Source of the DNA: an uncultured bacterium
GTDB lineage: Bacteria; Lernaellota; Lernaellaia; Lernaellales; Lernaellaceae
NCBI GenBank assembly: GCA_964534375.1
Contig: CAZHPN010000029.1
Span: 1-43,346, forward strand
Direction: 5' to 3'
DNA length: 43,346 bases
Part shown: one piece after another, positions 13,414-31,944 of the stretch
Layout: every line of letters starts with the position of its first letter
Position numbering within the stretch: position 1 is the stretch's first letter
Position numbers and translations under genes: made by a program
The notes under the pieces: generated by a model
Told to the model about the DNA's origin: nothing
What the model saw: only the letters and a program-made list of their open reading frames with translations
Database searches by the model: none

Positions 13414-13429
13414 TGGCGCCGGTCTTGCT
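13414..13429 (+). promoter_or_regulatory. Sigma-54 (-24/-12) promoter TGGCGC-cggtc-TTGCT upstream of gvpA
   Basis: Read directly: the GG and GC dinucleotides are spaced as in the consensus TGGCAC-N5-TTGCW. It lies about 50 bp upstream of the gvpA start and directly downstream of the NtrC-family activator gene. Confidence 0.6.
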
Positions 13430-13761: not shown

Positions 13762-13854
13762 GGCGGCTCCGACGAAAGCCGCGGTCGGCAACGTTTCACG
13801 GCGCGCGGTTCCCTTTGACGGGCCGCCGCCTCAACCGAAGAAAGGAGATCGGTG

Positions 13855-14280
13855 ATGAGCAATCATTTTACGAGTTTCACGGTCGATACGATGAAAGCGT
13901 TTGGCCAGGATTTGGCGGATCTGGCGCAGCATCGCACGGAAAGCATCACGAACATCCGCAATCATACCGAAGGCATGCTCGCGGGGTTCCTGAAAGAATT
14001 TCACGACGCGGCCGCCAAGCGCCGGAACGATGCGGCGGAAGACGCCGAAGCCCGCCGCAACCACTTGAACGCCTTGCGCGCCGAAGTGCAGTCGCTGCGC
14101 GAGACCTTCACGGCCGAGCGCGAAGCGATGGCCACCGACATCCGCGAGATGGCCGCCGAGCTGCGGCAGGCGTGCGAAACGTTCCGCAATCGTCCGCGGG
14201 CCGACCAGGCCTCGCCGGCGAAGGAATCGCCGCGCAGCAGCGGCCGCGGCAAGAACAAGCACAACAAGAGCGCGGAGTGA
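13855..14280 (+). CDS. Coiled-coil protein in the gvpC position. It has no GvpC 33-aa repeats.
   Basis: An AGGAGA SD precedes the ATG at 13855. The protein is Ala/Glu/Arg-rich and predicted helical (AEDAEARRNHLNALRAEVQSLRETFTAEREAMATDIREMAAELRQ). It lies between gvpA and gvpN. Confidence 0.5.
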   Translation: MSNHFTSFTVDTMKAFGQDLADLAQHRTESITNIRNHTEGMLAGFLKEFHDAAAKRRNDAAEDAEARRNHLNALRAEVQSLRETFTAEREAMATDIREMAAELRQACETFRNRPRADQASPAKESPRSSGRGKNKHNKSAE

Positions 14281-14380
14281 TCGCGGGACAGCCGCGCGCC
14301 GTGCGCGGCTGCCAATGCGGGCGCGGGCCGGGCGAAACCAGAAAGCGGAGCGACGGCGGCGTCGCGAAAGGAAAGGGACG

Positions 14381-15777: not shown

Positions 15778-16029
15778 ATGAGCATCAAATTAAATTGTCT
15801 GGCCTGCGGACACACGCTGACGCTCGGCGACGCGTACGAGGACTTCACCGGCGAGGTTCATTGCTGGGGCTGCCACACGCTGCTGGAAATCGCGTTGGTG
15901 GACGGCCGGCTCCGGTCGATCCGGCGGGCGGGAACCGGCGGCGCCGCGCTGGCCGCGCCCGCACACGAACAACCGGCGGAGCCGCAAGCGCCGCTGCCGC
16001 GGGATGGCGAGGCGGGTTATGGCGAATAA
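15778..16029 (+). CDS. Small zinc-ribbon protein (CxxC ... CxxC)
   Basis: 'MSIKLNCLACGHTLTLGDAYEDFTGEVHCWGCHTLLEIALVDG' has a GGGGA SD upstream. The C-terminal half is low-complexity. It overlaps the gvpF start. Confidence 0.4.
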   Translation: MSIKLNCLACGHTLTLGDAYEDFTGEVHCWGCHTLLEIALVDGRLRSIRRAGTGGAALAAPAHEQPAEPQAPLPRDGEAGYGE

Positions 16030-16783
16030 AGGGCTTTATCTCTACGGCCTGATTCGCGCGGACGACCAGCGGGAGTTCGGCTGCATCGGCTTGGCCGACG
16101 AAGGCGCGCCGGCGCTGGTGACGTCGATTTGCATCGCCGGGGTCTGCGCCGTGGTCAGCGACTGCGGGACGCAAAAAATCATGCCGTTGCGGAAGTATCT
16201 GGATCCCTATCATCGGGTGATCCAGGAAGTGATGAAAACGGCGACGATCATCCCCATTCGTTTCGGGCACGTCGCCAGAAACCGCGACGCCATCGCGACG
16301 ATGTTGAAGCACAACCGCGACACGATCCGCGAAGGTCTCGACCGGGTCGCCGGCTGCGTCGAAATGGGGCTGAAGGTGAAATGGGATGTGGACAACATCT
16401 TCGAACATTTCATCGGCATCGACGCGGAACTGGCCGCCTTTCGCGACGAGATCTTCGGCCGGTCGCAGGCGCCGAGCCTGGCGGAAAAAATCGAGCTGGG
16501 CCGGCTCTTCGCGGAGCGGCGGGCGAAGGAACGCGAGCGGGAGACGGAGCGGGTCATCGAACAGTTCCAGGGGTTTTCCGCCGACGTGAAATCGAATACC
16601 CCCAAGAACGAAACCGTCGTCATGGATCTCGCCTTTTTGGTGGCCCGCGACGCGATGAAGACGTTCGAGGAGCGGGTGTATCAAGTGGCGGCGACGTTCC
16701 CGTCGCACTATCTGTTCGACTACACGGGGCCGTGGGCGCCGTTCAACTTCGTGGACCTGGATCTGCAAACGCCGGACGATTGA
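16019..16783 (+). CDS. gvpF: Gas vesicle protein GvpF/GvpL family
   Basis: The N-terminus 'GLYLYGLIRADDQREFGCIGL' is typical of GvpF/L. The length, about 255 aa, also fits the family. Confidence 0.8.
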   Translation: MANKGLYLYGLIRADDQREFGCIGLADEGAPALVTSICIAGVCAVVSDCGTQKIMPLRKYLDPYHRVIQEVMKTATIIPIRFGHVARNRDAIATMLKHNRDTIREGLDRVAGCVEMGLKVKWDVDNIFEHFIGIDAELAAFRDEIFGRSQAPSLAEKIELGRLFAERRAKERERETERVIEQFQGFSADVKSNTPKNETVVMDLAFLVARDAMKTFEERVYQVAATFPSHYLFDYTGPWAPFNFVDLDLQTPDD

Positions 16784-16792
16784 GGGGACGCC

Positions 16793-17023
16793 ATGGGCAT
16801 CATCAACGCGTCGGTGCGCGGGCTGTTTCGCGTGTTCGATGAGGTCGCCGATCTCGCCGAAAAAGAACTGTACGACGAGGACGGGGTCAAAAACGAACTC
16901 ATGGAAATCTACAAGAATCTCGAAGCCGGCGTGCTCGACGAAGAAGAGTTCGAACGCCGGGAAGCCCGTTTGGTCGAGCGGCTGGGCGAGATCGAGGAGC
17001 GGCAGAAATCGAGGGGTCGATGA
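16793..17023 (+). CDS. gvpG: Gas vesicle protein GvpG
   Basis: The 76-aa product 'FRVFDEVADLAEKELYDEDGVKNELMEIYKNLEAGVLDEEEFERREARLVERLGEIEE' matches the GvpG pattern (ELYDE ... EEEFE...LLERL). Confidence 0.75.
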   Translation: MGIINASVRGLFRVFDEVADLAEKELYDEDGVKNELMEIYKNLEAGVLDEEEFERREARLVERLGEIEERQKSRGR

Positions 17024-17605
17024 CGACGAGAATCGCCGGCGGCGTGTGGCGCCGCGGCGGCCGGCCGGCGCTGGCGCAGCCCGGCGACGAAGGACCGTGG
17101 CGCCGCGGAGGACGGCGTCCGACGCCGCACGGCGTGCGCGCCAAACGCCGGATCGGGCGGCGCGCGCCGTTTCATCCGGGCGACCCGCGGTTTGAGATGT
17201 TTCTGGATGGCGCGTGAATCGTCGGTTCCGCAACGCGACACGAGAGGTTGGGACGACATGAGAAAGCGGCCCGCGATCGGCGGCAAAACCAGCAACGCAA
17301 CAGCGCGCGGCGGCAACCAACCGCCTCGCGCCGTGCGATCGCCCGCGCACCACGACGGCTTGCTCGACGCCGGCGCCTCGGACGACGCGTTCGTCGCGCT
17401 CGAACGCTGCCTGGAACGGATTCCGGTCGGGAGTTGGGCGGGCATGGTGATCGTCCGGCGCACAGAGCCGAACGCGATGAGCCGGGCGCGCGAAGGCAGC
17501 CGGCAGCCGGCGCCCGGCGACGCGTACCGCAGTTGTTTCCCGACGCGTCCGCCGCTCGCGCCGGCGGCGGCGGGCGATGCGCAGGGCGCCCTCGGGAGAA
17601 TCGTG

Positions 17606-18865
17606 ATGTTGCTGCGGGCGCGCACCGGGCACGATTTCTCGCTGTACAAGAAACGGACGCTTTACTACCGCGTCGAGCGGCGGATGGAACAACATCAAAT
17701 TGACACCGTGGGGTCGTACGCGGCGTTCCTGGCCGGCGATCCGCAGGAATTGGATATTCTGTACAAGGAAATGTTGATCGGCGTGACGGGCTTTTTCCGC
17801 GACCCGGCGGCGTGGGAGGCGTTGAAATCTCACGTACTGCCGGCGCTGATCGCGAGCCGGCCGGCCGGCACGACGTTGCGCGTCTGGGCGCCCGGTTGCT
17901 CGACCGGCGAAGAGGCGTACTCGCTGGCCATTGTGTTTCAGGAGGCATTCGAAAACATCGCCCCGCGCAAGAACCAGGCGGTGCGGATTTTCGCGACGGA
18001 TTTGAATCGCGACGCGCTGCAGATCGCCCGCCGCGGATTTTACCCGCGCGAGATCGCGGCGGCGGTTTCGCCCGAACGGTTGCGGCGGTTCTTTCCCGAG
18101 GAGCCAGACGGCTATCGGGTGGCGGCGGAACTGCGCACGCCCGTCGTCTTTATGGTTCACAACGTGATCATGGATCGCCCGTTCGCCCAAATGGATCTGT
18201 TGATTTGCCGCAACCTGCTGATTTATCTCGACCCCCGCCTGCAAAAGAACCTCCTGACCATGTTCTGGCAGACCCTGAATCGGGGCGGCTTCCTTTTCCT
18301 CGGCCCCGCCGAATCGGTCAGCGGCGCGCGCGACCTGTTCACGCCGGCGCAGCGGCCGGCGAAGCTGTTTCAACGCGTCGAAATCAGTGCGCCGGCGCGA
18401 CTGGCGCCCCTCGCACCCGCCGTGCAGCGGCTGCCGTTCGGCGCCGGCGAGTCGGCCATTTTGCGGCTGGAGAGCGGCGGCGCCGCCGACCGTTCCCGCG
18501 CGCAGACCACGCGCGTGATTCCCGTCGCCTACGGCCGCGAAGATCGCCTGCTCGCCGACATTACGGCGGACTGGGCGTATCCGGAATTGGCGGCCGACGT
18601 GCGCCTGGCCTTTCAAAACGGCGCGCCCACGGACCGGGAGATCGACCTGCCCGACGGCCGGCGCTGGACCGCGCGCATCACGCCCTGGAACGTGCCCGGG
18701 CGCCAGCTCGACGCGGTCGTCGTCGCCGTGCGCGAAACGACAGCCATGCAATTGATGGAGCGGGAGCTGCGCGCGGCGGAAACGCGGCAACGGCAATTCC
18801 CGCACGCGGCGGCGGAACGCGGCGGCGAACGGCCCGCGGACGCGCGCGAGGGGGGCCGGCCGTGA
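17606..18865 (+). CDS. cheR: CheR-type protein-glutamate O-methyltransferase with a C-terminal PAS-like extension (stand-alone, not fused to CheB)
   Basis: The CheR_N region reads 'LLRARTGHDFSLYKKRTLYYRVERRM'. The SAM-binding region reads 'GFFRD...LRVWAPGCSTGEEAYSLAI...LLICRNLLIYLD'. A GGGAGAA SD lies 5 nt before the ATG at 17606. An N-terminal extension to 17477 cannot be excluded. Confidence 0.8.
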   Translation: MLLRARTGHDFSLYKKRTLYYRVERRMEQHQIDTVGSYAAFLAGDPQELDILYKEMLIGVTGFFRDPAAWEALKSHVLPALIASRPAGTTLRVWAPGCSTGEEAYSLAIVFQEAFENIAPRKNQAVRIFATDLNRDALQIARRGFYPREIAAAVSPERLRRFFPEEPDGYRVAAELRTPVVFMVHNVIMDRPFAQMDLLICRNLLIYLDPRLQKNLLTMFWQTLNRGGFLFLGPAESVSGARDLFTPAQRPAKLFQRVEISAPARLAPLAPAVQRLPFGAGESAILRLESGGAADRSRAQTTRVIPVAYGREDRLLADITADWAYPELAADVRLAFQNGAPTDREIDLPDGRRWTARITPWNVPGRQLDAVVVAVRETTAMQLMERELRAAETRQRQFPHAAAERGGERPADAREGGRP

Positions 18866-20586
18866 CCTCGGGCAAGCGGGCGATGTCGGATTTCAACACG
18901 CTGCGGCGGCGCGCCGAGGAGAAGTTGCGCGAACACCGCCACGTCGCGGCCGGCGGCGCGCTGGACGACGAAACGCAGAATTTGCTGCGCGAACTGCAGG
19001 TCCATCAGATCGAACTGGAATTGCAGAATGAAGAGTTAATCGGCTCGCGCGAGGAGCTCGAACGCACGCTGGAACGGTTCACCGACCTGTTCGACCGCGC
19101 GCCGGTGGGCTATTTCGCCATCGATCGCGAGGGCGTAATCCGGCAGGCGAACCTGACCGGCGCGACGCTGCTCGGCGTGGAGGCGCCCTTGCTGGCGAAC
19201 CGGCCGTTTGCGCAATTCGTCGTCGCGGAGGCGCGGCCGAGATTCGCCGTCTTTCTCCGGACGGTTTTCGACAAGCGGACGCGCCGCTTGTGGGAAACAT
19301 CGTTGCTGCGGCCGGGCAAGCGGCCGCGGTTCGTGCGCCTCGAGGCGACCGTTCCGGAGACGGGCGGCGAGTGCCGGCTGGCGGCGCTGGACATCACCGC
19401 CCGGCGGCGAATGGAGGAAGCGCTCCGGAAAAGCGACGAGAAATATCGGCTGATCGCGGAAAACGTAATGGACGTGATTTGGACCGCGGATTTGTCGCTG
19501 AACATTCAATATATCAGTCCGGCGGTCCTGCGCATGCGCGGGTACAGCGTCAGCGAAGCCCGGCGGCAGGCGCCGGAAGAGATCTTCCCCGCGTCGTCGT
19601 TGGAGATGTTGAATGGTCTGCTCGCCGCGGAATGGGAAAAAGATGCGCGGCCGCCGGCCGACCCCGCCGACGTGCGCACGATCGAGTTGGAACAGTACTG
19701 CAAAGACGGTTCGACCATCTGGACCGAATGTCAATTCGGTTTCCTGCGCGACGAAGACGGCCGGCCGCAGGGGATTATCTGCGTCACGCGCAACATCACC
19801 GAACGGCGGCGGGCGCAAGCGGAACGGTTGACGATGGAAGCGCAATTGCGCCATCAGCAAAAGCTCGAGTCCATCGGCACGCTGGCCAGCGGCGTCGCGC
19901 ACGAAATCAACAATCCGCTGATGGGCATCATGAACTTCGCCGAGTTGATTCAGACCCAGGACATGCCGCGGGTCAAAGTCGAGGATTTCGCCCGCAAGAT
20001 CGTCGCGGAAAGCGCGCGGGCGGCGAAAATCGTCCGCAATTTGCTGGCGTTTTCGCGGCAGGACAGCGAGGAACACAGCCCGGCGCTGATCGACACCGTC
20101 ATCCGCTCGACCTTGTCGTTGATCGAAACCGTGCTGCGCAACGAGGAAATCAAGGTCACAGTGGACGTGCCGGACGGGCTGCCGGCGATCCGCTGCCGGA
20201 GCCAGCAGATTCAGCAAGTGATCCTGAATCTGGTGACCAATGCCCGCGACGCGTTGAACGAGCGATATCCGGGCCGGGATCCCGACAAGACCCTGGCGAT
20301 CCGCGCCCGGCAAATGGAAAAGGACGGCGCGCCGTGGATTCGCACGGTCGTCGAAGACCACGGCGTCGGCATGGCCGCAAAAACAATGGCCCGGATATTC
20401 GATCCTTTTTTTTCCACCAAGCCGCGCCATCTGGGCACCGGCCTCGGGTTGTCCGTCAGTCACGGAATTATCCGGGAGCACGGCGGCAATTTATGGGTGG
20501 ACAGCAGACTGGGTGAATTTTCGCGGTTCTACGTGGACCTGCCGGTCGACAACGGCTGGCGGCTGGACCGCGACCGAACCGTGTGA
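18862..20586 (+). CDS. PAS/PAC sensor histidine kinase with an N-terminal 'LQxHQIELELQNEEL' coiled-coil motif, translationally coupled to cheR (GTGA overlap)
   Basis: The N-terminus is 'LLRELQVHQIELELQNEELIGSREELERTLERFTDLFDRAPVGYFAID'. Two PAS domains follow. The H-box is 'SGVAHEINNPLMGI', the N box is 'LNLVTNARDAL' and the G box is 'FFSTKPRHLGTGLGLSVSHGII'. Confidence 0.8.
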   Translation: MTSGKRAMSDFNTLRRRAEEKLREHRHVAAGGALDDETQNLLRELQVHQIELELQNEELIGSREELERTLERFTDLFDRAPVGYFAIDREGVIRQANLTGATLLGVEAPLLANRPFAQFVVAEARPRFAVFLRTVFDKRTRRLWETSLLRPGKRPRFVRLEATVPETGGECRLAALDITARRRMEEALRKSDEKYRLIAENVMDVIWTADLSLNIQYISPAVLRMRGYSVSEARRQAPEEIFPASSLEMLNGLLAAEWEKDARPPADPADVRTIELEQYCKDGSTIWTECQFGFLRDEDGRPQGIICVTRNITERRRAQAERLTMEAQLRHQQKLESIGTLASGVAHEINNPLMGIMNFAELIQTQDMPRVKVEDFARKIVAESARAAKIVRNLLAFSRQDSEEHSPALIDTVIRSTLSLIETVLRNEEIKVTVDVPDGLPAIRCRSQQIQQVILNLVTNARDALNERYPGRDPDKTLAIRARQMEKDGAPWIRTVVEDHGVGMAAKTMARIFDPFFSTKPRHLGTGLGLSVSHGIIREHGGNLWVDSRLGEFSRFYVDLPVDNGWRLDRDRTV

Positions 20587-20599
20587 AGAGGAGCGCGCC

Positions 20600-21724
20600 A
20601 TGCCGCGAATTTTGATCGTCGACGACGAACCGAACATCTGCGAAGCGATCGGCGAGTTTCTGCGCAACGACGGCCATGACGTCATGACGGCGCCGGACGG
20701 CGCGGACGCGCTGGCCGCCTTGACCGCGCAGCATTTCGACGTCGTGGTCACCGACATCATCATGCCGCGCTTTTCGGGCATCGAACTGCTGCACCGGATT
20801 AAAGATTCGGATCCCGAGGTGCAGGTGATTGTGGTGACCGGCGAGCCGACGCTGGAAACGGCTTCGACGGCGTTCCGCGAGCATGCGTTCGACTATCTGC
20901 CGAAGCCGGTCAGCGGCAAAGTGCTGCGGCAAGCCGTCGCCAACGCGTGCAAGCTGAAGGCGCTGGGCGAAGAAAAAAAGCGGCTCGAGGCCGAGAACGA
21001 CAAGTATCGCGAAGAACTGGAAAAGTTGGTCGAGGCCCGCACCGGCGAAGTCCTGCGCGCCAATCAACGGCTGCAGGAGTCGCTGATCTGCCTGCGCGAA
21101 AATCTGGACGACAGCACCCGCGCGATGTCGATCATGATCGAAAAGCGCGATCCGTACACCGCGGGGCACCAGGCGCGCGTCGCCCAGCTCGCACTGGCGA
21201 TGGCGACCGCGATGAATCTCGGGGAAAACGAAATCGCGTCGGTCCATACGGCGGCGCTGCTGCACGACGTGGGGAAGATTTGCGTTCCCGTCGAGATTTT
21301 GTCGAAGCCGGCGAAATTGAACGACGCGGAAATCACGTTGATCCAATGCCATTGCGAAGCGTCGTTCGAAATCCTGCGCACGATCCGGTTTCCCGGCCCG
21401 ATCGCGACGATCGCCGGCCAGCACCACGAACGGTGGAACGGCTCGGGGTATCCGGCGGGACTGCCGGGCAAGGAAGTCCTGCACGAGGCGCGGATCATCG
21501 CCGTGGCCGATGTCGTCGAGGCGATGACGCACCATCGGCCGTTTCGGCCGGCGCAGGGCGTTGCCGCGGCGCTTTCCCACATCACGGAAGCCGCCGGCGT
21601 GCTCTACGACCCGGACGTGACGGCGGCGTGCGTCGACACGTTCCGCGCGGGTTTTTCATTCAACGGCGGCTCGGCCGACATGCCGGGCCGGTACGGCGCC
21701 GATCTGAGCTGCCGCAACAATTGA
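20600..21724 (+). CDS. Response regulator with an HD-GYP domain (c-di-GMP phosphodiesterase class)
   Basis: The receiver reads '[14 protein letters not shown]' and 'VVVTDIIMPRFSG'. The HD-GYP domain reads 'AALLHDVGKI' and 'HHERWNGSGYPAGL'. A GAAGAGGAG SD lies upstream. Confidence 0.8.
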   Translation: MPRILIVDDEPNICEAIGEFLRNDGHDVMTAPDGADALAALTAQHFDVVVTDIIMPRFSGIELLHRIKDSDPEVQVIVVTGEPTLETASTAFREHAFDYLPKPVSGKVLRQAVANACKLKALGEEKKRLEAENDKYREELEKLVEARTGEVLRANQRLQESLICLRENLDDSTRAMSIMIEKRDPYTAGHQARVAQLALAMATAMNLGENEIASVHTAALLHDVGKICVPVEILSKPAKLNDAEITLIQCHCEASFEILRTIRFPGPIATIAGQHHERWNGSGYPAGLPGKEVLHEARIIAVADVVEAMTHHRPFRPAQGVAAALSHITEAAGVLYDPDVTAACVDTFRAGFSFNGGSADMPGRYGADLSCRNN

Positions 21725-21727
21725 CGG

Positions 21728-22156
21728 ATGGCAAACATCTTTCCGGGGGGAAACAAATTGACCACGCCGACGAATCTGCGACCGATGCGGGACCGCGGGA
21801 GCAAGGAATCCCTGGCCGACGCGATCGAAGTCATTCTCGACAAAGGGTTGGTGATCAACGCCGACATCACCGTGTCCGTGGCCGGCGTCGAGCTCCTCGG
21901 CATCAAAATCCGCGCGGCGCTGGCCTCGTTCGCCACGGCGGCCAAATACGGATTGGAGTTCCCGTCGGGGACCAACATCGAAACCTCCGCCTGGCGGCAG
22001 GCGCAGTCGGGCGACGAGTCTTGTCCGCAGTGCGGCAAACATTCCGCGACCGAAGAACTGCTCAATGACGGCTGCCCGTGGTGCGGCTGGCAAAGCGCGC
22101 GGGCGAGGGCGGTTGCGCCGGCGCCGCTGCCGCTGCCGATCGCCGGCAGTCAATGA
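21728..22156 (+). CDS. gvpJ: GvpJ/GvpM-type (GvpA-like) protein with a C-terminal zinc-ribbon extension
   Basis: The GvpA-like core is 'SLADAIEVILDKGLVINADITVSVAGVELLGIKIRAALASFATAAKYGL'. The C-terminus 'CPQCGKHSATEELLNDGCPWCG' is a CxxC...CxxC ribbon. The start may be the Met at 21785. Confidence 0.7.
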   Translation: MANIFPGGNKLTTPTNLRPMRDRGSKESLADAIEVILDKGLVINADITVSVAGVELLGIKIRAALASFATAAKYGLEFPSGTNIETSAWRQAQSGDESCPQCGKHSATEELLNDGCPWCGWQSARARAVAPAPLPLPIAGSQ

Positions 22157-22258
22157 AAGGCGGTTCGATGATCGGGACTTCGCCGCGGCGCGATCGCGTC
22201 CATTTGCCGACCTGCCGGGGCTGCGCGCGCGGCGACCCCGGCGCGGGCGAGGCGTAGC

Positions 22259-23230
22259 ATGGAGCCAGTGCGCGAGGCGAAAGCCACCGTCACGGACCTG
22301 CTCGATCGGTTGTTGGAAACCGGCGTCATTCTCGATTTGGACATGATCATCGGCATCGCCGGCGTGCCGTTGATCGGGGTCAGTCTGCGCGCCGCGATCG
22401 CGGCCATCGAAACGATGATCGAGTACGGGTTCATGCAGACATGGGACGAAAACACGCGGCGCTACGCCGAGCGCGAATTGCAGAGCAAACGTTTGCCGTT
22501 TGGGCGGGACGAACGCACGCTGGTGGAAATGTTCGGTTCGCATTGGTCGGCCGACGGCATCCAGCGGGCGTGGCGGCCCGGCCGGTTGTTCGTGACCAAT
22601 CAACGCTTGATCCTGTATCGGCGGATGCCCGCCGAGGTCCTGTTCGAGGCTCCGTTGGGACGCATCGCCGGCCTCGCGACCGGTGAGAGCGTGCGCTTCG
22701 ACGGGCGACGCGTCCCGCTCTTGCACATCACGTTGGACGACGGCGCCGCCGCGTCGTTCTACGCCGAGGATCTCGACGGCCTGCGGTCGGCGTTGGAAGA
22801 GCAATTGGCGGCGATGGGCGTGGCCGTCACCGCAACGAGCGAGGCCTGGGGTCAGGATTGCGAAGCGGCCGACGCGATGCCCGGCGCGCAGATCCTGGCC
22901 AAGGGCATGATGTGGCGGCAGGAATCCGGCGCGCCAGGGATCGCGGCCGAATGGCGCCCGGGAATTCTCTATTTGACCGACAAGGGGTTGCTCTGGTGGT
23001 CGCAGAACCGCCGGCGTCTGGAACTGCGCATCGCGGCCTCGTCGATCCTGGGCGTGACCGCGGAGACCCATGAAAAAAGCGCGTTGCTGCCCGAGAGTTC
23101 GATGCTGGTCGTGCGCTGGATGGGCCAGGACGCCACGATGACCAGCTTGTTCACTGGGAAAGCCGTCGAAGAGTGGCGTCGCGCGATTCGCCGCGTGGCG
23201 GTCGATGACAAAAGTGGAGCAGCGTCATGA
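22259..23230 (+). CDS. GvpJ/GvpM-like N-terminal domain fused to two PH/GRAM-like domains
   Basis: The N-terminus '[48 protein letters not shown]' is GvpA-like. Two repeats follow: '[35 protein letters not shown]' and '[35 protein letters not shown]'. These resemble bacterial PH/GRAM-like beta-sandwich domains; the domain call is by pattern, not by search. Confidence 0.55.
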
Positions 23231-23547
23231 TCGATGTCGACGAAGGGAACTTGAAGCAAGGTCTGCTGGGCCTGGTGATCGCCTTGGTCGAAGTGATCAA
23301 GGACGCGCTGGCGACGCAGGCCTTCCGGCGGATGGAAAACGGGCATTTGACCGACGCCGAGGTCGAGCGGCTCGGCGCCGCGCTGGCGGATTTGGACGTC
23401 GTGCTGGCGCAGATCAAAGAAGAACACGGCGTCGCGGAGGCGGTTCAACAGGTGCGCGACAGCCTCGACGATCTGGTCGGCGACGTGGTCGACCGCCTGT
23501 CGAATCCCGGCCGTTGGCCGGAAGCGGCCGAGCCGCTGTCGTCGTGA
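23227..23547 (+). CDS. gvpK: Gas vesicle protein GvpK
   Basis: '[57 protein letters not shown]' matches the GvpK pattern (LVLTVVELLRQLMEAQAIRRMEAGSL...). There is an ATGA overlap with the upstream gene. Confidence 0.8.
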
Positions 23548-23600
23548 ACGAATGCGGGGGGAATCCCCCACGCGTGTTCCGCTGGGGACGGAAGGCAACG

Positions 23601-26600
23601 ATGGATATTCGCCGGAAGAACGGAGGCCGCGCGGCGCGTATTTTCTACCTGATCTTCGTTCTTTTTGCCGCGGGCATCGTCGCCGGCGGCTACCTCTACT
23701 TCCATTACTATGAAAAGCACTACCGCATTGAGGTCGAGCATCAGCTTTCGGCCATCGCAGAACTGAAGGTGAGCGAACTGGCGCGGTGGCGCCAGGAAAG
23801 GTTGGCGGACGCGGCCGTCTTTTATCGGAACGACGCGTTCGCCGCGCTCGTGCGGCGTTATTTCGAGAAGCCGGACGATGCGGCAACGCAAGCGCAACTC
23901 GGGGCCTGGCTGGCGCATTTTCAGCAGGCGGAGCACTACGACGCGGTGATGTTGCTGGACAATCAATACGTCGGAAAGATGATTTTTCCCGCCGGACCGG
24001 AGCGCGGGCTCGCCTTCGTTTCTCCGGGCGTCGCGGCGACCCTGCAAGCGGGCCAGGTGGCCTTTGAGGATTTTTACCGCGACGAGCAGAACCGGCGAAT
24101 CTACCTGAAAACCATGATCCCGATTTTCGATGAACCGGACGGCGGCCGGCGTCTGGGCTGCCTGGCGCTACGAATCGATCCCACAACGTATCTCTACCCA
24201 TTTATCCAGCGCTGGCCGCTGCCCGGTCGCACCGCGGAAACGTTGCTCGTTCGCCGCGAAGGAAAGGACGTACTCTTCCTGAACGAGCTCAAATTCGCCG
24301 CCGACGTGGCGCTCACGCGGCGCATCCCGCTGGCGAGACAAGACGTGCTCGCCGTCAAGGCCGTCGCCGGACACCAAAGCATCGTCGAGGGCCTGGACTA
24401 CCGGAACGTGCCGTCGATCGGCGCGGTGCGGGCCGTTCCGGATTCGCCGTGGTTCCTCGTCGCGCGCATGGACACCGCCGAGGTGTATGCGCCGCTGCGC
24501 GGCCGGCTGTTGGCGACCGTGATCGTGGCGTGCCTGCTGCTCGTGTGTTCCGCCTTTGGCGCCGGCCTGGTCTGGCGGCAACGCGACGCCGCATTCTATC
24601 GGGCGCAATGCCAGTCGGACGAAGCCTTGCGGGAAAGTGAAAAAAAATTGCGCAGCTATATCGACAATGCGCCCGACGGGGTGTTTGTCGCCAACGAACT
24701 CGGCCACTACTTGGAGGTCAATCCGGCAGCCTGCGAGATGACCGGCTACTCCCGCGAAGAACTGACAAAATTGAATTTCATGGAGCTGGTTCCTCCGCAC
24801 GCAAAGGAAGCCGCTCGGCAGGCGTTTGCATCGGTCGCGCGGACCGGCAAGACGCGCGTCGAAATACCATTTCTTCGCAAAGACGGCCAAAGCCGTTTCT
24901 GGAGCGTCGACGCCGTCAAGCTGACGGATTCGGGATACCTCGCTTTTACCAAGGATACCACGGCACGCCGACGCGCCGAGGAAGAGCTGCGGGCGAGCGA
25001 AGGGAAACTGCGCAGCTATATCGACAATGCGCCGGACGGAGTTTTTGTCGCCAACGAACTCGGCAACTATTTGGAGGTCAATGCAGCAGCCTGTGAGATG
25101 ACCGGCTACTCCGGCGAAGAACTGACGAAAATGAATCTCATGGAACTGATTCCTCCACACGGAAAAGAAGCCGCGCAAAAGGCTTTTGAAGCGGTCGCGC
25201 AAACCGGCAAAATCCGCGTCGAAATTCCGTTTCTTCGCAAAAACGGCCAAGGCGGTTTCTGGAGCGTCGACGCCGTCAAGTTGACGGATTCGAGATACCT
25301 CGCATTTACCAAGGACATCTCGGCACGCCGACGCGCCGAGGAAGATCTGCGGGAGAGCGAAAGGAAATTGCGCAGCTATATCGACAATGCGCCCGACGGG
25401 GTTTTTCTCGCCAACGAATTGGGCAACTACGTCGAGGTCAATGCGGCGGCATGCGCGATCACCGGTTACTCCCGCGAAGAACTCCTGCAGATGAATCTGA
25501 TGGATCTCGTGCCGCCGGAAGGAAGAGACGCCGCGCGGCAGTCCTTCGAGGACGTCGTGCACACGGGCAAAACCAGCGTCGAATTTCCCGTCGTCCGCAA
25601 AAACGGCGAAGTCTTTTTCTGGAGCGTCGATGCGGTGAAATTGTCCGATACGCGATTTCTCGGATTCAAGAAGGACATCACCGCGCGCAAACGCGCCGAA
25701 GAGGCGCTGCGCGACAGCGAAGCCCGCTTTCGGGTGCTGTTCGACAGTTCCCACGACGCGATGATGATCCTGGAGCCGCCGCTCTGGAATTTCACCTCCG
25801 GGAACCCGGCGACGATCGCGATGTTCAAAGCCAAAGACAGCCGCGAATTCGAGTCGTACGGTCCGGCCGGGCTGTCTCCGGAACGCCAGCCGGACGGCCG
25901 CGCCTCCGCCGAAAAAGCGCGGGAGATGATCGACACAGCGATGCGGGAGGGCTCCCACTTTTTCGAGTGGACGCACCGGCGGGTCGACGGCGAAGATTTC
26001 TCGGCTACGGTCCTGCTCAGCAAGATCGAGTTGGCCGGGAAACCGATGCTGCAAGCGACGGTGCGGGATATTTCGGCGCAAAAACGCGCCGAGGAGACGT
26101 TGCGTCAGACGACTGAGCGGGCCAACCAAATGGCCGTCGAGGCGCAGGCGGCCAATATCGCCAAGAGCCAGTTCCTGGCCAACATGAGCCACGAAATCCG
26201 CACGCCGATGAATGGCGTCATCGGTATGACCGGCTTGCTGTTGGACACCGAGCTATCCGAGGAACAGCGCCGCTACGCCGAGACGATCCGCTCCAGCGGC
26301 GATTCGTTGCTGCGCGTGATCAACGACATTTTGGATTACTCGAAAATCGAAGCGGACAAGTTGGAATTGGAGACGCTCGATTTCGACCTGCGGGCGACGT
26401 TGGAGGACACGGCCGAACTGCTGGCGCTGCGCGCCTGCGACAAAAACCTCGAATTCGTTTGCCGCATCGATCCGACGACGCCGACTTTCCTGCGCGGCGA
26501 TCCCGGGCGTTTGCGCCAGATCCTCGTCAATCTGGGCGGCAACGCAATTAAATTCACCCAGAAAGGCGAGGTGGAAATCGACGTCCGGCCGGAGGCCGAA

Positions 26601-28109
26601 ACCGCCGAGCGGTTTACCGCCCGCTTTGCGGTGCGCGACACCGGCATCGGCGTTCCGGCCGACAAAATCGGGCTGCTGTTCAATGCCTTTCAACAGGTGG
26701 ACGCGTCCACTACGCGCTTGTTCGGCGGCACGGGGCTCGGGTTGGCCATTTCCAAACAACTGGTCGAGCAGATGGGCGGCGCGATCGGCGTGGAAAGCGT
26801 CGCAGGCCAAGGGACGACCTTCTGGTTCACTGCGGTTTTCGACAAGCAACCGCGGCGCGAAGACCGCGAGGATGCGCCGCGCGCCGACGTGCGCGGCATG
26901 CGCATTCTGGCCGTCGACGACAACGACACCAACCGCCTGGTGCTGGCGGAGCAACTGGCGTCCTGGGGCGTCCGCCACACCGAAACCGACAGCGCTCCCG
27001 AGGCGCTGCGGCTGATGCGCGCCGCCTGCGCCGAGAGCGACCCATTCCGCATTGTGGTTACGGATATGCAAATGCCGGCGATGGACGGCGAGGCGCTCGG
27101 CCGCGCCGTCAAGGCCGATCCCGAGTTGCGCGACACGCTGCTGGTGATCATGACGTCGCTCGGTCGCCGCGGCGACGCGAAACGGCTGGAGGCGATCGGC
27201 TTCGCGGCGTATTTGACCAAGCCGGTCAGACAGTCGCAATTGTACGATTGCCTCGCCACCGTGCTGGGCCGCGTGCCGACAACCGCCCAGGCCGACCCCG
27301 CACTGGTCACGCGCCACACGCTGGGCGAACTGCGCCGGCGAAAAGTTCGCATTCTGTTGGCCGAGGACAACGCCACCAATCAACAGGTGGCGCTCGGCAT
27401 CCTTGAAAAACTGGGTTTCCACGCCGACGCCGTGGCCGATGGGGAGGAAGCGATCCGCGCGCTCGAAAGCAATCCATATGATCTCGTTTTCATGGACGTG
27501 CAGATGCCGGTCATGGACGGCTTCGCGGCGACGCGCGCGATTCGTTCCGGCAAGACAAAAATAGCCAATCCGAAAATTCCCATTGTCGCGATGACGGCCC
27601 ACGCGATGAAGGGCGACCGCGAGCGCTGCCTGGCCGAAGGCATGGACGACTATGTGTCGAAACCGATCGGTTCGCAGGCGCTGGCCGAGGCGCTCGACCG
27701 CTGGCTCGGCCGCGTTTCCGACAAACGGCCGCCGCTCCACGTTTTCGCCAAAGCTCTGGACGCTGGCGAGGGGCCGCTTGTTTTCGACCGCGCGGCCCTC
27801 ACGGCGCGCCTCATGGGCGACGAGGATCTGCTCGCGGAAATCGTCGCGGGATTTCTCGGCGACATGCCCCGACAGATCGGCGAACTCCGAGCCTGCGTCG
27901 AACGGTCGGAGGCGGTGTCGGCGGCGAACCAGGCGCACACAGTTAAAGGCGCGGCGGCCAACGTGGGCGGCCTCGCCCTGAGCGCGGCGGCGCTGGCGAT
28001 CGAGAAATCCGTCAAAGCCGGCGATTGGGAAGAGAGCGCCGCCCTGTTGCCGGAGTTGGAGCGGCAGTTCGAATTGTTGCGGGCGGAGATGCCGGAGGCC
28101 GGTCGATGA
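23601..28109 (+). CDS. Large hybrid sensor histidine kinase (about 1500 aa). The domain order is an N-terminal extracytoplasmic sensor domain flanked by TM segments, 3 tandem near-identical PAS domains plus a fourth PAS, HisKA, HATPase_c, 2 receiver domains and a C-terminal Hpt domain.
   Basis: The start is the ATG at 23601, from '[34 protein letters not shown]', which contains TM1. TM2 is '[23 protein letters not shown]'. The H-box is '[15 protein letters not shown]' and the G box is '[19 protein letters not shown]'. The receivers read '[10 protein letters not shown]...[12 protein letters not shown]' and '[10 protein letters not shown]...[12 protein letters not shown]'. The Hpt domain reads '[13 protein letters not shown]'. 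The longer ORF from 23205 overlaps gvpK in another frame and is rejected. Confidence 0.85.
24620..25700 (+). repeat. Three in-frame tandem repeats of 360 bp (120 aa) inside the hybrid kinase, each encoding a PAS domain
   Basis: TTGCGCAGCTATATCGACAATGCGCCCGACGG recurs at about 24648, 25008 and 25368. The protein repeats ('[13 protein letters not shown](V/L)ANELG.Y(L/V)EVN.AAC..TGYS.EEL...N.M.L.PP....') appear about 80-90% identical to each other by eye. Confidence 0.8.
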
Positions 28110-29023
28110 AGGTCCTGATCGCCGAAGACGATCTCACCTCGCGCCGGATTCTGAGCGCGATTCTGAAGAAATGGGGCTACGAGCCCGTCGTCACGGAAGA
28201 CGGCGACGCGGCCTGGGACGCGTTGCAACAGCCGGAATCGCCCAAGCTGGTTCTCCTCGATTGGAACATGCCGGGGATGGATGGGGTGGAAGTCTGCCGG
28301 CGATTGCGGCAGAGCGTCTGCGCCAATCCGCCGTACGTCGTGCTGCTGACCGGGCACGGGGAAAAGAACGATATCGTCCGCGGCTTGGAAGCGGGCGCGA
28401 ACGACTACATCGCCAAGCCGTACGACAGCGAGGAGTTGCAGGCCCGGATCAAAGTCGGCCAGCGCATGGTCGAATTGCAAGCCGGTCTGTCGGCGGCGCG
28501 CGACGCCCTGGAGTTTCAGGCGATGCACGATTCGTTGACGGGCATTTTCAATCGCCGCGCCATTCTGGACCGGCTAGCGGCGGAGCTTTCGCGGACCAAA
28601 CGACAAGGCGGCGGCCTCAGCGTGGGCATGTGCGATATCGATCATTTCAAGAACGTCAACGACACCTTCGGCCACCAGACCGGCGACGAAGTGTTGATCG
28701 CGTTCACACGGCGCCTCCAGGCCAGCCTGCGGGAATATGACTGCCTGGGCCGCTATGGCGGCGAAGAGTTTCTCGTCATCGCCGCCGGTTCGGAAGGAAC
28801 GAGCGACGAAAGTCTCTACGAGCGGCTGCGCGCCGCCGTCGCGAACGGCGCGATGCCGACAAAAGCGGCGGTCCTGTCGATCACCGTCAGCATCGGGGTG
28901 GCGTCGGGCGCGGCGCAGAGCACGGTCGACAACTTGCTGGCCGACGCCGACGCGGCGCTGTATCAAGCCAAGGCCGACGGCCGCAATCGCGTTGCCTATT
29001 GGCAGCCGAAGGAGAAATCATGA
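28106..29023 (+). CDS. Response regulator with a GGDEF domain (PleD/WspR-like diguanylate cyclase)
   Basis: The receiver reads '[14 protein letters not shown]' and '[13 protein letters not shown]'. The GGDEF domain reads 'RYGGEEF' with the upstream '[14 protein letters not shown]'. There is an ATGA overlap with the hybrid kinase gene. Confidence 0.85.
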
Positions 29024-29730
29024 TTGAAAAAGCCGGGCGAGCCGAGTCGATCGATCACAATTCGGCGTCGCACGATCAGTCGCTGCTTGTCGCCCAGGGC
29101 GGTTTTTTGTCCCGCCCGCAGGCCGCGTGGCAAATCGGGCAATGGTCGCTGCTGTCCGAGCGGTTGGTCTTCGGTCAGTCGAGCCGGCGCGTGTTCGATC
29201 TGCCGCTCGATAAGATCGAGGCGGTGGCGCAGGAGCGCCGCAAATTCATCCTCGTACACAAGCCGGTCATCCGTTTGACCTTTCTTCACCCGCGAAGAAA
29301 CGATCGGCGCGACGCTTGGCTGATCGCGTCGCCGCTGGATCGCTGGGCGGAATCGCTTCGTCTGCTGACGGGGTTGCGGCTCGACGACGCGACTGGCGAA
29401 CGCAATCGCGCGGCCGGCGTTTTGCCGGCGGAATCCGCCGACCCGGCCAGCGATGTCGCGCAGGGCGACGAGATTCCGGGCGCCGAGCCGCAGTTTGAAG
29501 TTCACGACGAGGCCGAGGCGCTGTGGGTCGTAGCCGTCATCCCCGGCGTGCGAAAAGAGACCTTGCGTGCGGAAGTCCATGGTCGAAGTCTGGACGTGGA
29601 GACGGAGACAGCGCACGGTCCGTGCGCTTTGCGCATCCCGTTGCCCTGCCGCGTGCTGCCCCAACCGACCGAACTGAAATGCGCCAACGACGTGTTGAGC
29701 GCGCGCCTGAAAAAAACGGCGTGGAGGTGA
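29020..29730 (+). CDS. PH/GRAM-like N-terminal domain fused to an Hsp20/alpha-crystallin-like C-terminal domain (GvpH-like?)
   Basis: An AAGGAGAAATC SD precedes the ATG at 29020, and there is an ATGA overlap with the GGDEF gene. The N-terminus 'WQIGQWSLLSERLVFGQSSRRVFDLPLDKIEAV' is similar to the repeats in 22259-23230. The C-terminus 'FEVHDEAEALWVVAVIPGVRKETLRAEVHGRSLDVETE...LKCANDVLSARLKK' is alpha-crystallin-like. Confidence 0.5.
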   Translation: MIEKAGRAESIDHNSASHDQSLLVAQGGFLSRPQAAWQIGQWSLLSERLVFGQSSRRVFDLPLDKIEAVAQERRKFILVHKPVIRLTFLHPRRNDRRDAWLIASPLDRWAESLRLLTGLRLDDATGERNRAAGVLPAESADPASDVAQGDEIPGAEPQFEVHDEAEALWVVAVIPGVRKETLRAEVHGRSLDVETETAHGPCALRIPLPCRVLPQPTELKCANDVLSARLKKTAWR

Positions 29731-29734: not shown

Positions 29735-30559
29735 ATGAGCCAATCGACGTACGAGCCCGTAAAGTCAGAACCGGTCGGAAGATATGTGTATTGCGTCGCC
29801 GCGGGCGAACTCGGCCCGCCGCCCGTGCCGGGGCTCGACAGTTGCCCCGTGCGCGCCGTGTCGGCCGCCGGCCTCACCGCGTTTCTGCACGACTGCGCGG
29901 CGGCGCCGTATCGCGGCGACGACGAAAAGGTCGCCGCGTGGGTGGTCGCGCACGGCGAAGTGGTCGACGCCGTTTGGGACAAAATCGACCCGGTGCTGCC
30001 GCTGGCGTTCGACACCATTATTCGCCCGGACGACGGTTTGGACGGCGACGAGCAGGTTCGGCGCTGGCTGGCGATGGAGAAGGACCGCTTTGGCGCGCTG
30101 CTCGATTCGTTGCGCGGCAAAGTCGAGCTCGGCGTTCAAGTCTTCTGGATTTCCAACGTGGTCGGCGCCGCCGTCGCCGAGGGCGACGAAGAGATTTGCC
30201 GGTTGCGCGCCGAGATGGCCGGCAAGCCCAAGGGCATGGCCTACTTTTACCAGCAGAAAATCGAGCGCGCATTGCGGCGGGCGCTCGAAATTCGCGCCGA
30301 GGCCGATTACCGCCTGTTTTTCCGGCAGATCGCCTTTCTTTGTCCGGAAGTGCGCCTCAACAAGGTGCGCAAGGCGCCGGAGCGGCAGATGATTCTCAAC
30401 GTGTCGGTGCTGGCGCCGCGCGAACAAGTCGCCGAGTTGGGCGACGTCGTCGCGGGGTTTCAAAAGACGGCCGGGGTGGAAGTGCGCTTTACGGGCCCGT
30501 GGCCGCCGTACAGTTTTGTGCGGCCGAAACCGAACCCGGCGCCGGTCGAGGAGAATTAG
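29735..30559 (+). CDS. gvpL: Gas vesicle protein GvpL/GvpF family (second paralogue)
   Basis: The N-terminus 'RYVYCVAAGELGPPPVPGLDSCPVRAVSAAGLTAF' is typical of GvpF/L. It is 274 aa with a GGAGGTGA SD. Confidence 0.75.
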   Translation: MSQSTYEPVKSEPVGRYVYCVAAGELGPPPVPGLDSCPVRAVSAAGLTAFLHDCAAAPYRGDDEKVAAWVVAHGEVVDAVWDKIDPVLPLAFDTIIRPDDGLDGDEQVRRWLAMEKDRFGALLDSLRGKVELGVQVFWISNVVGAAVAEGDEEICRLRAEMAGKPKGMAYFYQQKIERALRRALEIRAEADYRLFFRQIAFLCPEVRLNKVRKAPERQMILNVSVLAPREQVAELGDVVAGFQKTAGVEVRFTGPWPPYSFVRPKPNPAPVEEN

Positions 30560-30570: not shown

Positions 30571-31944
30571 TCAGGTCGAATCCGGCCGGTCTTTGTTGAT
30601 GCCGTATTTCTTTATCCGATAACGCAAGGTCTCCACGGGCAGGCGCAAGGCCCGGGCGGCGCGGCTGCTGTTGTAGTCGTTGTTCCGCAACGCGTCGAGA
30701 ATGAGGCGTTTCTCGAATTCCTCCTTGTCCCCGGCGAGGCCCGACTTGCGCTCGGTTTCCGCGGAGGCGATCAGGAAATCCATCGGCAGGTCGGGGATGT
30801 CGAGGAATTCCTTCTTGGCGGAGGCGTAGATCGCCATCCGCTCGATCGTGTGCGACAGCTCGCGAACGTTGCCATGCCAGGGCTGCTTGGCAAAAATCCC
30901 ATACACGTCGGGCGTAAACCCCACCAGGCCCTTGTGATATTTTCGGGCGTACCGGTCGAGGAAGAACAGGCTGAGCGCGTGAATGTCGTCGGGCCGATCG
31001 CGCAACGGCGGCACGTGGATCGGCATGACCACCAGCCGATAGTATAGATCGCGGCGGAAACGACCGTCCGCCAGCATTTCGTCCAACCGCCGCGACGTCG
31101 CGGCGACGATCCGCGCATCCCCTTTGATGCGACGGTTCGAGCCGACGCGTTCGAATTCGCCGTCCTCGATGACGCGCAGCAGCTTGACCTGCTGCTCCAA
31201 CGCCAGATCGCCGATCTCGTCGAGAAAGATCGTGCCGCCGTTGGCCAATTCGAACTTGCCCTCTTGGCTGGCCACGGCGCCGGTGAACGCGCCGCGCTCG
31301 TGCCCGAAGAGCGTGGACTCGATCAAATCTTTGGGAATCGCCGGCAGGTTGACGATCACAAACGGCTGGTCGGCCCGTGCGCCGGTTTGATGGATATAAC
31401 GTGCGGCGAGGTCCTTGCCGGTTCCCGTTTCCCCTTGGAGCATGCAGATCGCGTCGCACGAAGCGGCCATGTCCAACTCCAGCGCGAGCCGCAGCGACGC
31501 CGCCGAAGAACCCAGCAACATGTCGCCCAACAGCATGGAATGGGACTCCTGAATCACATAGATCTTATCGGCGGACGACGCCGGGCCCTCCGACGCGCGG
31601 TGCAATTCGTCAAGCAATGCGGTGGGGAGAGAGTGCGGCTGCAAGAAACCAAAATCGCCCGACCGCGCCACGCGGCGGCCGTTCCCGATTTCGGCGACCG
31701 TCGTTTTCACCACGACGTCGGCTTCGGGCGAGCGATCGCGCAGCACTTTCAGGAACAACGGCAGCGGCGAACGCGGCCCCGCCGGGCCCAGAAGCACCAC
31801 CTCGAAATCTTCTTGCGCCACCAGGGTGAGCGCCTCGTTGACGTTCGTCGCGGAACGGACGATGTGGCCCGCGCGAGAATCGAAGGCAAAACTTTTTTGG
31901 CGTTCGCATTCGCCTTGGACACATAGGATTCGCAGCCGTTTCAT
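30571..31944 (-). CDS. Sigma-54-dependent transcriptional activator with a degenerate N-terminal receiver (pseudo-receiver)
   Basis: The AAA+ sigma-54 domain reads '[15 protein letters not shown]' and '[15 protein letters not shown]'. The C-terminal HTH reads '[22 protein letters not shown]'. In the receiver-like N-terminus 'RILCVQGE...DFEVVLLGPAGP', Gly replaces the phospho-acceptor Asp. The start codon overlaps the stop of the upstream hybrid kinase (ATGA). Confidence 0.8.
   Translation of the reverse strand: MKRLRILCVQGECERQKSFAFDSRAGHIVRSATNVNEALTLVAQEDFEVVLLGPAGPRSPLPLFLKVLRDRSPEADVVVKTTVAEIGNGRRVARSGDFGFLQPHSLPTALLDELHRASEGPASSADKIYVIQESHSMLLGDMLLGSSAASLRLALELDMAASCDAICMLQGETGTGKDLAARYIHQTGARADQPFVIVNLPAIPKDLIESTLFGHERGAFTGAVASQEGKFELANGGTIFLDEIGDLALEQQVKLLRVIEDGEFERVGSNRRIKGDARIVAATSRRLDEMLADGRFRRDLYYRLVVMPIHVPPLRDRPDDIHALSLFFLDRYARKYHKGLVGFTPDVYGIFAKQPWHGNVRELSHTIERMAIYASAKKEFLDIPDLPMDFLIASAETERKSGLAGDKEEFEKRLILDALRNNDYNSSRAARALRLPVETLRYRIKKYGINKDRPDST

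Follow-up and report, generated by a model that had tools for sequence, protein, structure and literature searches.

The 43,346-nucleotide (nt) stretch of DNA analysed here (the window), positions 1 to 43,346 of contig CAZHPN010000029.1 from an uncultured bacterium, carries a cluster of gas-vesicle (gvp) genes interrupted by two sets of signalling genes, which centre on a predicted phosphodiesterase (PDE) and a predicted diguanylate cyclase (DGC) for cyclic di-GMP (c-di-GMP), a second messenger. We read these as two ordinary two-component c-di-GMP cassettes that would have entered a conserved gas-vesicle operon at different times. Cassette 1 (17192-21724) consists of genes for a CheR-type protein, a PAS kinase and a REC-HD-GYP response regulator, and is common to a sister genome; cassette 2 (23601-29023), with genes for a hybrid kinase bearing an Hpt domain and a REC-GGDEF response regulator, is found in the window's lineage only. 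In terms of mechanism and ALTERNATIVES, the most likely picture is that of a kinase-gated push-pull pair that would be co-expressed with the gas-vesicle genes. On balance we favour a functional coupling of the cassettes with the gas vesicles, in one direction or the other, while leaving substantial room for doubt. The enzymes themselves are members of well-known families; it is their gvp context that is unreported and lineage-specific.

Genes were picked by third-position GC together with domain searches (Pfam, NCBIfam); the window has ~64% G+C, so that most long open reading frames (ORFs) in it are spurious. All of the genes of the interrupted block lie on the + strand. Cassette 1 opens with a CheR-type methyltransferase gene (17192-18865; Pfam CheR 170.4 bits, CheR_N 54.2 bits), which is followed by the gene for a cytoplasmic 574-residue histidine kinase with the Pfam domain order PAS-PAS-HisKA-HATPase (18862-20586) and that for the REC-HD-GYP response regulator, the predicted c-di-GMP phosphodiesterase (20600-21724; Pfam Response_reg 100.7 bits). 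The gvp genes resume with one for a GvpJ-like protein that ends in a CxxC...CxxC zinc ribbon, GvpJ(Zn) (21728-22156; Pfam Gas_vesicle 58.1 bits, best NCBIfam model GvpJ; 66-81% identity across related loci), one for a protein with a GvpM/J-like N-terminus and two PH/GRAM-like domains, GvpM(2xPH) (22259-23230; Pfam Gas_vesicle, best NCBIfam model GvpM), and gvpK (23227-23547; Pfam GvpK E=3.7e-17). Cassette 2 comprises the genes for a membrane hybrid histidine kinase of 1502 residues (23601-28109; from Pfam, the start codon and independent assemblies) and for the REC-GGDEF response regulator, the predicted diguanylate cyclase (28106-29023; Pfam Response_reg 99.2 bits). It is followed by a gene for a 236-residue protein with a PH/GRAM-like N-terminus and an Hsp20 (alpha-crystallin, GvpH-like) C-terminus, PH-Hsp20 (29020-29730), and by the last + strand gvp gene, for GvpF/L (29735-30559; Pfam GvpL_GvpF 208.6 bits). 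Pfam and residue mapping bear out the coordinates and motifs of the two enzymes in a preliminary description of this DNA, and the gene map agrees with it that each enzyme follows a histidine kinase and that gvp genes stand on either side of both, on the same strand.

The REC-GGDEF protein looks catalytically competent and receiver-gated, and appears to possess a product-inhibition site. It scores 153.1 bits against the Pfam GGDEF model (PF00990; cut-off 23.8) and 172.3 bits against TIGR00254 (cut-off 37.4), and falls below the equivalog cut-offs for PleD (NF007135, 233.9 vs 474) and DgcR (NF047654, 202.8 vs 500). Its signature is RYGGEEF, with GGEEF at residues 218-222 (nt 28757-28771). When it is aligned with PleD, the active-site residues, which we take to be D327, K332, N335, D344, K442 and R446 in PleD numbering, are conserved, including a segment that matches DIDFFKKINDTFGHDIGDEV and another that reads AKADGRN vs AKASGRN. 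The preliminary description had tentatively suggested that the RxxD I-site is lacking, and this is wrong: R209-E-Y-D212 (codons 28730..28741, +) aligns with R359-A-I-D362 of PleD, lies exactly five residues before GGEEF as it does in PleD, and is accompanied by an Arg at the equivalent of PleD R390. The receiver has E, D, D, T and K at the five CheY-type positions. At the position that determines Hypr activity (GacA-348) the protein has Asp (TGDEVL), not Ser. Work on the Hypr enzymes assigns Asp with GGEEF to diguanylate cyclases, the enzymes with Ser/Thr carrying GGDE[F/Y] exclusively (PMC6456294). The protein is therefore predicted to be a c-di-GMP synthase, and a Hypr-type cyclase making cyclic GMP-AMP (cGAMP) was ruled out for it by the same two features.

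The kinase that precedes it has, in order, a transmembrane segment, a weak dCache-like periplasmic domain, a second transmembrane segment, four PAS domains, HisKA, HATPase, two REC domains and Hpt. Neither of its REC domains has lost the acceptor Asp or any other conserved residue, which makes a ShkA-like pseudo-receiver acting as a c-di-GMP sensor unlikely. Three near-identical PAS domains of this kinase are encoded by a 360-bp unit present three times (24645-25722, +; 82% matches), which looks like a recent tandem duplication of the sensor module. The giant hybrid kinase of the preliminary description is a real kinase upstream of the GGDEF gene; its start was misplaced, the 1634-residue ORF (23205-28109) having a spurious 5' extension over gvpK in another frame, so that gvpK had been overlooked. 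The GC content of third codon positions in gvpK is 0.83 in its own frame vs 0.25-0.38 in the kinase frame, gvpK is called in 5 independent assemblies, and the kinase ATG at 23601 agrees with the gene calls of independent assemblies. In cassette 2, a signal perceived in the periplasm or by the PAS domains would reach the receiver of the REC-GGDEF protein by way of the Hpt relay and switch on c-di-GMP synthesis, as in PleD and DgcR, with the RxxD product-inhibition site capping the output of the cyclase.

The REC-HD-GYP protein likewise looks catalytically competent and receiver-gated. It scores 128.5 bits against PF13487 (Pfam HD_5; cut-off 27.2) and 60 against PF01966 (cut-off 22); the HD dyad is H222-D223 (nt 21263-21268), and the HHERWNGSGYP loop occupies residues 275-285 (nt 21422-21454), with Asn in place of the Asp of the consensus HHExxDGxGYP. 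Alignment with PmGH reveals equivalents of D183, H189, H221/D222, K225, H250, H276/H277, GYP, D305 and R314, the catalytic D183/K225 pair being D184 and K226. Seven of the eight PmGH metal ligands are present; the equivalent of E185 is Tyr186, as in V-cGAP3, so that the protein lacks the full set of eight that marks the trinuclear subgroup and is predicted to belong to the binuclear subgroup, as has been proposed for RpfG. The receivers of both enzymes keep the equivalents of CheY D12/D13, D57, T87 and K109, and these five residues support the earlier idea that each enzyme is gated by its receiver. Degenerate catalytic motifs can be ruled out for either enzyme by the PleD, PmGH and CheY alignments: the GGEEF, HD and GYP residues, for which an alignment check had been suggested, are intact. 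In cassette 1, the PAS kinase would phosphorylate the receiver and so turn c-di-GMP hydrolysis on, as RpfC does for RpfG. The same 574-residue kinase gene is found in the sister and in independent assemblies. The start of the CheR gene in front of it is placed differently by other gene callers (17258), and the product has 535 residues in one independent assembly. The window holds this CheR gene (17192-18865) without a gene for a chemoreceptor, CheA or CheW; at a Desulfobacteraceae gvp locus a receiver and a CheR gene likewise lie downstream of gvp genes (L050:17450-18229; such numbers designate individual loci).

From gvpA to the last gvpF/L gene, every gene is co-directional. Start and stop codons overlap by 4 bp at four junctions: 18862/18865, where the CheR stop meets the PAS-kinase start, 23227/23230, 28106/28109, where the ATG of the REC-GGDEF gene overlaps the hybrid-kinase stop as ATGA, and 29020/29023. 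The ATG of the REC-HD-GYP gene lies 13 nt past the PAS-kinase stop (20586). Terminator-like hairpins are no commoner than in shuffled sequence. A sigma-54-type -24/-12 promoter-like element, TGGCGCCGGTCTTGCT (13414..13429, +), stands ~50 nt before gvpA, with one mismatch to TGGCAC-N5-TTGCW, and an activator gene (11805-13211) lies directly upstream of gvpA; matches of this type across the window are not above chance, and it is by position that the gvpA element stands out. The element is likely to mark the start of a long gvp operon, with which both cassettes are probably co-transcribed. Misassembly is ruled out, since 4-5 independent assemblies show the same junctions from gvpK to the kinase and from the GGDEF gene to the gvp gene that follows it, and the whole HD-GYP cassette also recurs in contigs of several independent assemblies.

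The GvpM(2xPH) protein served as an anchor in gathering related loci; its family comprises 90 protein clusters, and species-representative genomes of many phyla contain 350 loci with it; the best 80 of the 350 loci were screened, with 10-kb flanks, for the window's domains. The block GvpF/L-GvpJ(Zn)-GvpM(2xPH)-GvpK-PH/Hsp20-GvpF/L is uninterrupted in six relatives more distant than the sister (L005, at 9216-13544, L007, L008, L009, L010 and L012; 53-81% protein identity). In the sister metagenome-assembled genome (MAG; ~78% nt identity), the PAS kinase and REC-HD-GYP genes stand before GvpJ(Zn), while PH/Hsp20 comes directly after gvpK, so that 23548-29019 of the window is a 5.5-kb indel. The cassettes are derived insertions into a conserved block. 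By parsimony, insertion of the PDE cassette would have preceded that of the DGC cassette, which would have taken place in the lineage of the window alone. MAGs that bear the block are labelled Rectinemataceae, Omnitrophota, Syntrophobacteraceae, Thermoleophilia and Myxococcales, which implies either that anaerobes have exchanged the cluster horizontally or that there are binning errors.

Outside gvp loci, both enzymes have close and plentiful relatives. At E<1e-30 we find 5883 homologues of the REC-GGDEF protein, with more than 120 clusters at 67-80% identity, and 6986 of the REC-HD-GYP protein, in whose family ~50% identity is routine. A hybrid kinase gene lies upstream in about half of those of the 80 closest metagenomic REC-GGDEF loci that have enough upstream sequence. 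Two loci, L088 and L090, have a hybrid kinase 64-68% identical and a REC-GGDEF protein 72-80% identical to those of the window, joined by the same 4-bp overlap and with no gvp genes; a third, L089, has the REC-GGDEF gene without the kinase and without gvp genes. In L088 (6207-11944) the hybrid kinase and REC-GGDEF (80% identical) genes form a three-gene unit with a REC-HD-GYP gene, outside a gvp context; to judge by its domains, this unit is a ready-made push-pull module under one kinase. The REC-HD-GYP protein of the window is nearest to that of the sister (81% identity) and next to that of L086 (58%), a non-gvp locus in a housekeeping neighbourhood, where the gene in front of it encodes a kinase that shares 48% identity with the PAS kinase. 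Since the closest non-sister homologues of either enzyme lie outside gvp loci, a gvp-specific orthologous family was ruled out for both. That kinase-regulator pairs are co-inherited elsewhere (L088, L090 and L086) fits two cognate phosphorelays, as the preliminary description had suggested. Each pair appears to behave as a mobile, generic unit, which argues against a dedicated, ancient system joining gvp genes to c-di-GMP.

A good deal of the evidence weighs against a functional link, and we bring it together here. The cassettes are generic and their arrangement is not conserved in relatives: both are missing from the six relatives with an uninterrupted block, and the kinase/GGDEF cassette is missing from the sister, so that the pairing of a DGC with a PDE does not hold as a feature that gvp loci conserve. 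No GGDEF or HD-GYP gene occurs in the sampled flanks of 69/80 screened gvp loci, the density of c-di-GMP genes inside the gvp span is low (2 per 733 kb), and a rise in density toward the edge of the gvp cluster was not seen (1.7/100 kb within 4 kb vs 4.8/100 kb beyond). None of the 80 closest metagenomic REC-GGDEF loci has gvp genes beside it (0/80). Two-component genes are, moreover, unusually abundant in the window, so that a cassette inserted there is more likely to be a signalling one in any case. Among solved structures the HD-GYP domain is best matched by V-cGAP3, a 3'3'-cGAMP phosphodiesterase (E=1.5e-36), which makes c-di-GMP less certain as its substrate. Nor did the search for a receptor yield one. 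PilZ gave no match in any scanned ORF of the window, including scans at E<=1, in agreement with the preliminary description, and when the full length of the window was scanned with Rfam at E<=1 for c-di-GMP-I/-II riboswitches, only a spurious miRNA match came up.

The three sigma-54 activators of the window were aligned with FleQ, the sequence of which was checked against PDB 5EXP. The residues through which FleQ binds c-di-GMP, said to have been described by Matsuyama et al. in 2016, are reportedly R144 of LFRS, R185/N186 and E330/R334. The three activators lack conserved equivalents of R144, N186 and E330, which also counts against the link; they retain R185 or R334 only, N186 being replaced by Y/T and E330 by F/R. 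The first five residues of FleQ are misplaced far from the AAA+ domain, making the alignment unreliable there, and the LGDM that stands before the AAA+ domain in the activator at 30571 is without an Arg. A FleQ-type c-di-GMP site in these proteins was dropped as a candidate, given that the residues are not conserved.

Against these points stand others that favour a link. One argument is that insertion happened twice in succession and brought in c-di-GMP enzymes each time. A GGDEF or HD-GYP gene is found at 11/80 screened gvp loci, with its motifs intact where checked; at loci other than the window these genes have varied inputs (REC, PAS, GAF) and low identity, which suggests independent recruitments. 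Genes of this kind are embedded only in the related pair L019 and L033, in which a REC-GGDEF gene lies between gvpA and the CDC48 ATPase gene. HD-GYP and GGDEF genes are ~five-fold more numerous in gvp flanks than in a control of 797 kb around REC-GGDEF homologues (nominal Poisson P 0.0003-0.006), a control that is small and taxonomically unmatched, with matches that are phylogenetically non-independent; we regard the enrichment as suggestive only.

Three other accounts of the locus have to be set against functional coupling. The cassettes may be passengers, generic modules tolerated in the operon that serve the cell's general c-di-GMP network and have nothing to do with buoyancy. The homologues in unrelated contexts, the indel that separates two close relatives at the DGC cassette, the 69/80 related clusters without such genes, the flat density toward the cluster edge and the crowd of two-component genes in this region are all what this account would lead one to expect. 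It sits less well with two separate insertions that both bring c-di-GMP turnover enzymes, which we would think improbable for random cargo, with the tight translational coupling to flanking gvp genes that has been preserved, and with the nominal five-fold enrichment in gvp flanks, and we hold it to be unlikely, though a serious contender. In another account the pair handles 3'3'-cGAMP instead of c-di-GMP. V-cGAP3 is, as noted, the best solved match of the HD-GYP domain, and deltaproteobacterial REC-GGDEF enzymes do include Hypr cGAMP synthases (PMC6456294); the combination of Asp at the specificity position with GGEEF, however, is that of a diguanylate cyclase (PMC6456294), and we consider this account most improbable.

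The remaining account is that of a self-contained local circuit, in which c-di-GMP controls gvp expression or assembly through an effector encoded in the locus, either the PH/GRAM fusion proteins or a sigma-54 activator. Both fusion proteins are PH/GRAM-like, as far as a model and profile comparison can tell. For the 22259-23230 product, the AlphaFold2 (AF2) model predicts two PH-like domains (residues 87-185 and 212-315; mostly pLDDT 80-90), each a seven-stranded beta-sandwich capped by a C-terminal helix, and Foldseek matches it to tandem-PH proteins and to BBS5, Rtt106, centaurin and AKT PH domains (E=1e-5 to 6e-7); members of its family match Pfam GRAM and Vps36-GLUE. For PH-Hsp20 the assignment comes from a weaker hhalign match of residues 22-116 to the second PH domain of the GvpM(2xPH) family (E=2.8e-4, probability 41%), the single-sequence AF2 model (pLDDT 43.6) being unusable; residues 153-233 match the NCBIfam Hsp20 model at E=8.5e-9, below its cut-off, and homologues hold the same position in related loci. 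In support of a local circuit one may cite the fact that a single operon received c-di-GMP cassettes in two independent insertions, the repeated and independent recruitment of GGDEF/HD-GYP genes at other gvp loci, the invariant Trp/Arg-rich motifs of the PH-like domains (W105, R106, R116, W232), and the activator at 30571-31944, which has a degenerate receiver and a FleQ-like architecture and is kept beside the cluster in the sister. Yet the fusion proteins are core gvp proteins at 350 loci, 69/80 of those screened being without a nearby GGDEF/HD-GYP gene, so that they are not singled out as c-di-GMP effectors; the preliminary description, which had proposed them in that role, was right as to the fold, while nothing marks them as effectors. 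The PH proteins that Foldseek returned bind lipids or histones, and we know of no PH or GRAM domain that binds c-di-GMP, which we also count against this account. FleQ residues are not conserved, neither PilZ nor a riboswitch was found in the window, and the sister manages with the PDE cassette only. We therefore find a self-contained local circuit rather doubtful, and it is very unlikely, in our estimate, that c-di-GMP acts locally by binding the PH/GRAM domains of GvpM(2xPH) and PH-Hsp20, which would be a new class of receptor, or an AAA+ protein. If it did so, a second messenger would serve as a post-translational switch for the assembly, clustering or collapse of vesicles.

Functional coupling of a looser kind, which we favour, would work as follows. 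The push-pull pair would be made whenever the sigma-54-driven gvp operon is on, so that the c-di-GMP pool would be tied to the floating state, and the pair could equally feed back on the formation of vesicles or reset adhesion and motility to suit that state. Control of buoyancy by the second messenger, as proposed in the preliminary description, draws support from the position of the cassettes in the gvp operon; it is weakened by the absence of the arrangement from relatives, and the opposite direction, with expression of the gvp genes resetting the pool of c-di-GMP, agrees with the data just as well. A link between c-di-GMP and buoyancy, to which gene position points, is plausible and would be lineage-specific.

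The rest of the window can be dealt with briefly. An upstream gvp/regulatory operon on the + strand opens with a GvpH/Hsp20 gene (~6378-6898) and continues with genes for a REC-only regulator (7139-7699), a conserved 215-residue protein with no family match (7687-8334), a CDC48-family AAA ATPase (8324-10513; TIGR01243 906 bits, above the cut-off), a histidine kinase (10517-11830) and a GvrA-like REC-AAA+ sigma-54 activator with a GAFTGA motif (11805-13211; Pfam Sigma54_activat 228 bits, REC 102 bits). The CDC48 ATPase and the adjoining 215-residue protein recur in many such gvp loci (58-64% and 29-42% identity, respectively); to our knowledge, their role in vesicle biogenesis is uncharacterised. 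Next on the same strand are gvpA, for the major gas-vesicle shell protein (13481-13702; 93-95% identity to GvpA of L005 and L067), a gene without an assigned family for a 142-residue product (13852-14280), gvpN (14315-15412), a small zinc-ribbon gene that is conserved in L005 and L067 (15778-16029), the first copy of gvpF/L (16004-16783) and gvpG (16793-17023; Pfam). Zinc ribbons of GvpJ or GvpM(2xPH) were also noted at L018, L020, L074, L077 and L079, and at many loci other than the window the ribbon is fused to the C-terminus of GvpM(2xPH) instead of GvpJ. From 30571 onward the genes lie on the minus strand; they encode three kinases, a NarL-type regulator and two sigma-54 activators whose receivers are degenerate. 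The two activators (30571-31944 and 41475-42911, both -) are paralogous, with the receiver acceptor Asp changed to Gly and a FleQ-like architecture; each adjoins hybrid kinases, and the first is the one that stays beside the gvp cluster in the sister MAG.

Two further features lie near the upstream operon. A second sigma-54-like element, TGGCACGATTATTTCA (6123-6138, +), with a weak -12 region, stands ~240 nt before the GvpH/Hsp20 gene. At 5253-5528 there are, on both strands, nine direct and inverted copies of [G/T]GCGGGAGTG, at the start of a minus-strand gene for a PFL-like glycyl-radical enzyme (start 5301); the window contains 14 matches to this motif vs 5.7 expected, a number reached in 0/100 shuffles. 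In the ~1-kb spacer that precedes the gvpH-like gene, these clustered copies are probably sites at which a regulator binds.

c-di-GMP is the main bacterial signal for the decision between planktonic and attached life; a real link would bring float-or-settle together with swim-or-stick under one messenger, and would provide a handle for tuning engineered gas vesicles. The evidence is positional and was obtained from a lineage that has not been cultured, and relatives do not share the arrangement, which makes it a testable lead rather than a discovery. A more general by-product of the analysis is a very widespread and uncharacterised gvp core block of GvpJ(Zn), GvpM(2xPH), GvpK and PH-Hsp20.

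The enzymes of both cassettes invite comparison with characterised systems. The REC-GGDEF protein resembles PleD, DgcR and WspR in having a receiver followed by a GGDEF domain, the GGEEF motif, the active site, and the RxxD I-site with the R390 equivalent, and in being encoded directly after a presumed kinase. It is like DgcR (PDB 6ZXB/6ZXM, E=1e-45 to 1e-47) in its length of ~300 residues and its single receiver, whereas PleD has two; it also differs in its upstream partner, a large hybrid kinase that bears an Hpt domain, and in its place inside a gas-vesicle operon. That kinase, in turn, differs from those of L088 and L090 in its N-terminal sensor region and its three tandem PAS domains. The REC-HD-GYP protein has its counterparts in RpfC/RpfG and in the structurally solved enzymes PmGH and V-cGAP3: common features are the REC-HD-GYP architecture beside a kinase, the HD dyad, the HH...GYP loop and the conserved D305 equivalent, and, as in RpfG, the E185 ligand is missing. 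The kinase partner in the window differs in that it is a PAS kinase of the cytoplasm, with a CheR-type methyltransferase in front of it. The nearest NCBIfam model, that of the NosR-family REC c-di-GMP phosphodiesterases, gives 235 bits against a cut-off of 400.

Regulation of gas vesicles is understood in few models: in haloarchaea it involves GvpD/E, and in Serratia it involves GvrABC, quorum sensing and oxygen. A full-text search of the literature found no paper linking c-di-GMP enzymes to gas-vesicle genes, the co-mentions being incidental. Where regulator genes within a gvp cluster are concerned, the closest precedent is the GvrA/GvrB/GvrC set of Serratia sp. ATCC 39006, which, like the window, combines two-component and sigma-54 regulators there, and on whose GvrA the transcription of gvpA1 depends (PMC4982088). 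The window has a Gvr-like layer of its own, made up of the REC-only regulator, the kinase, the REC-AAA+ activator and the sigma-54-like site before gvpA. No c-di-GMP enzymes have been described for the Serratia system, and by this comparison the two cassettes of the window are additions on a Gvr-like layer.

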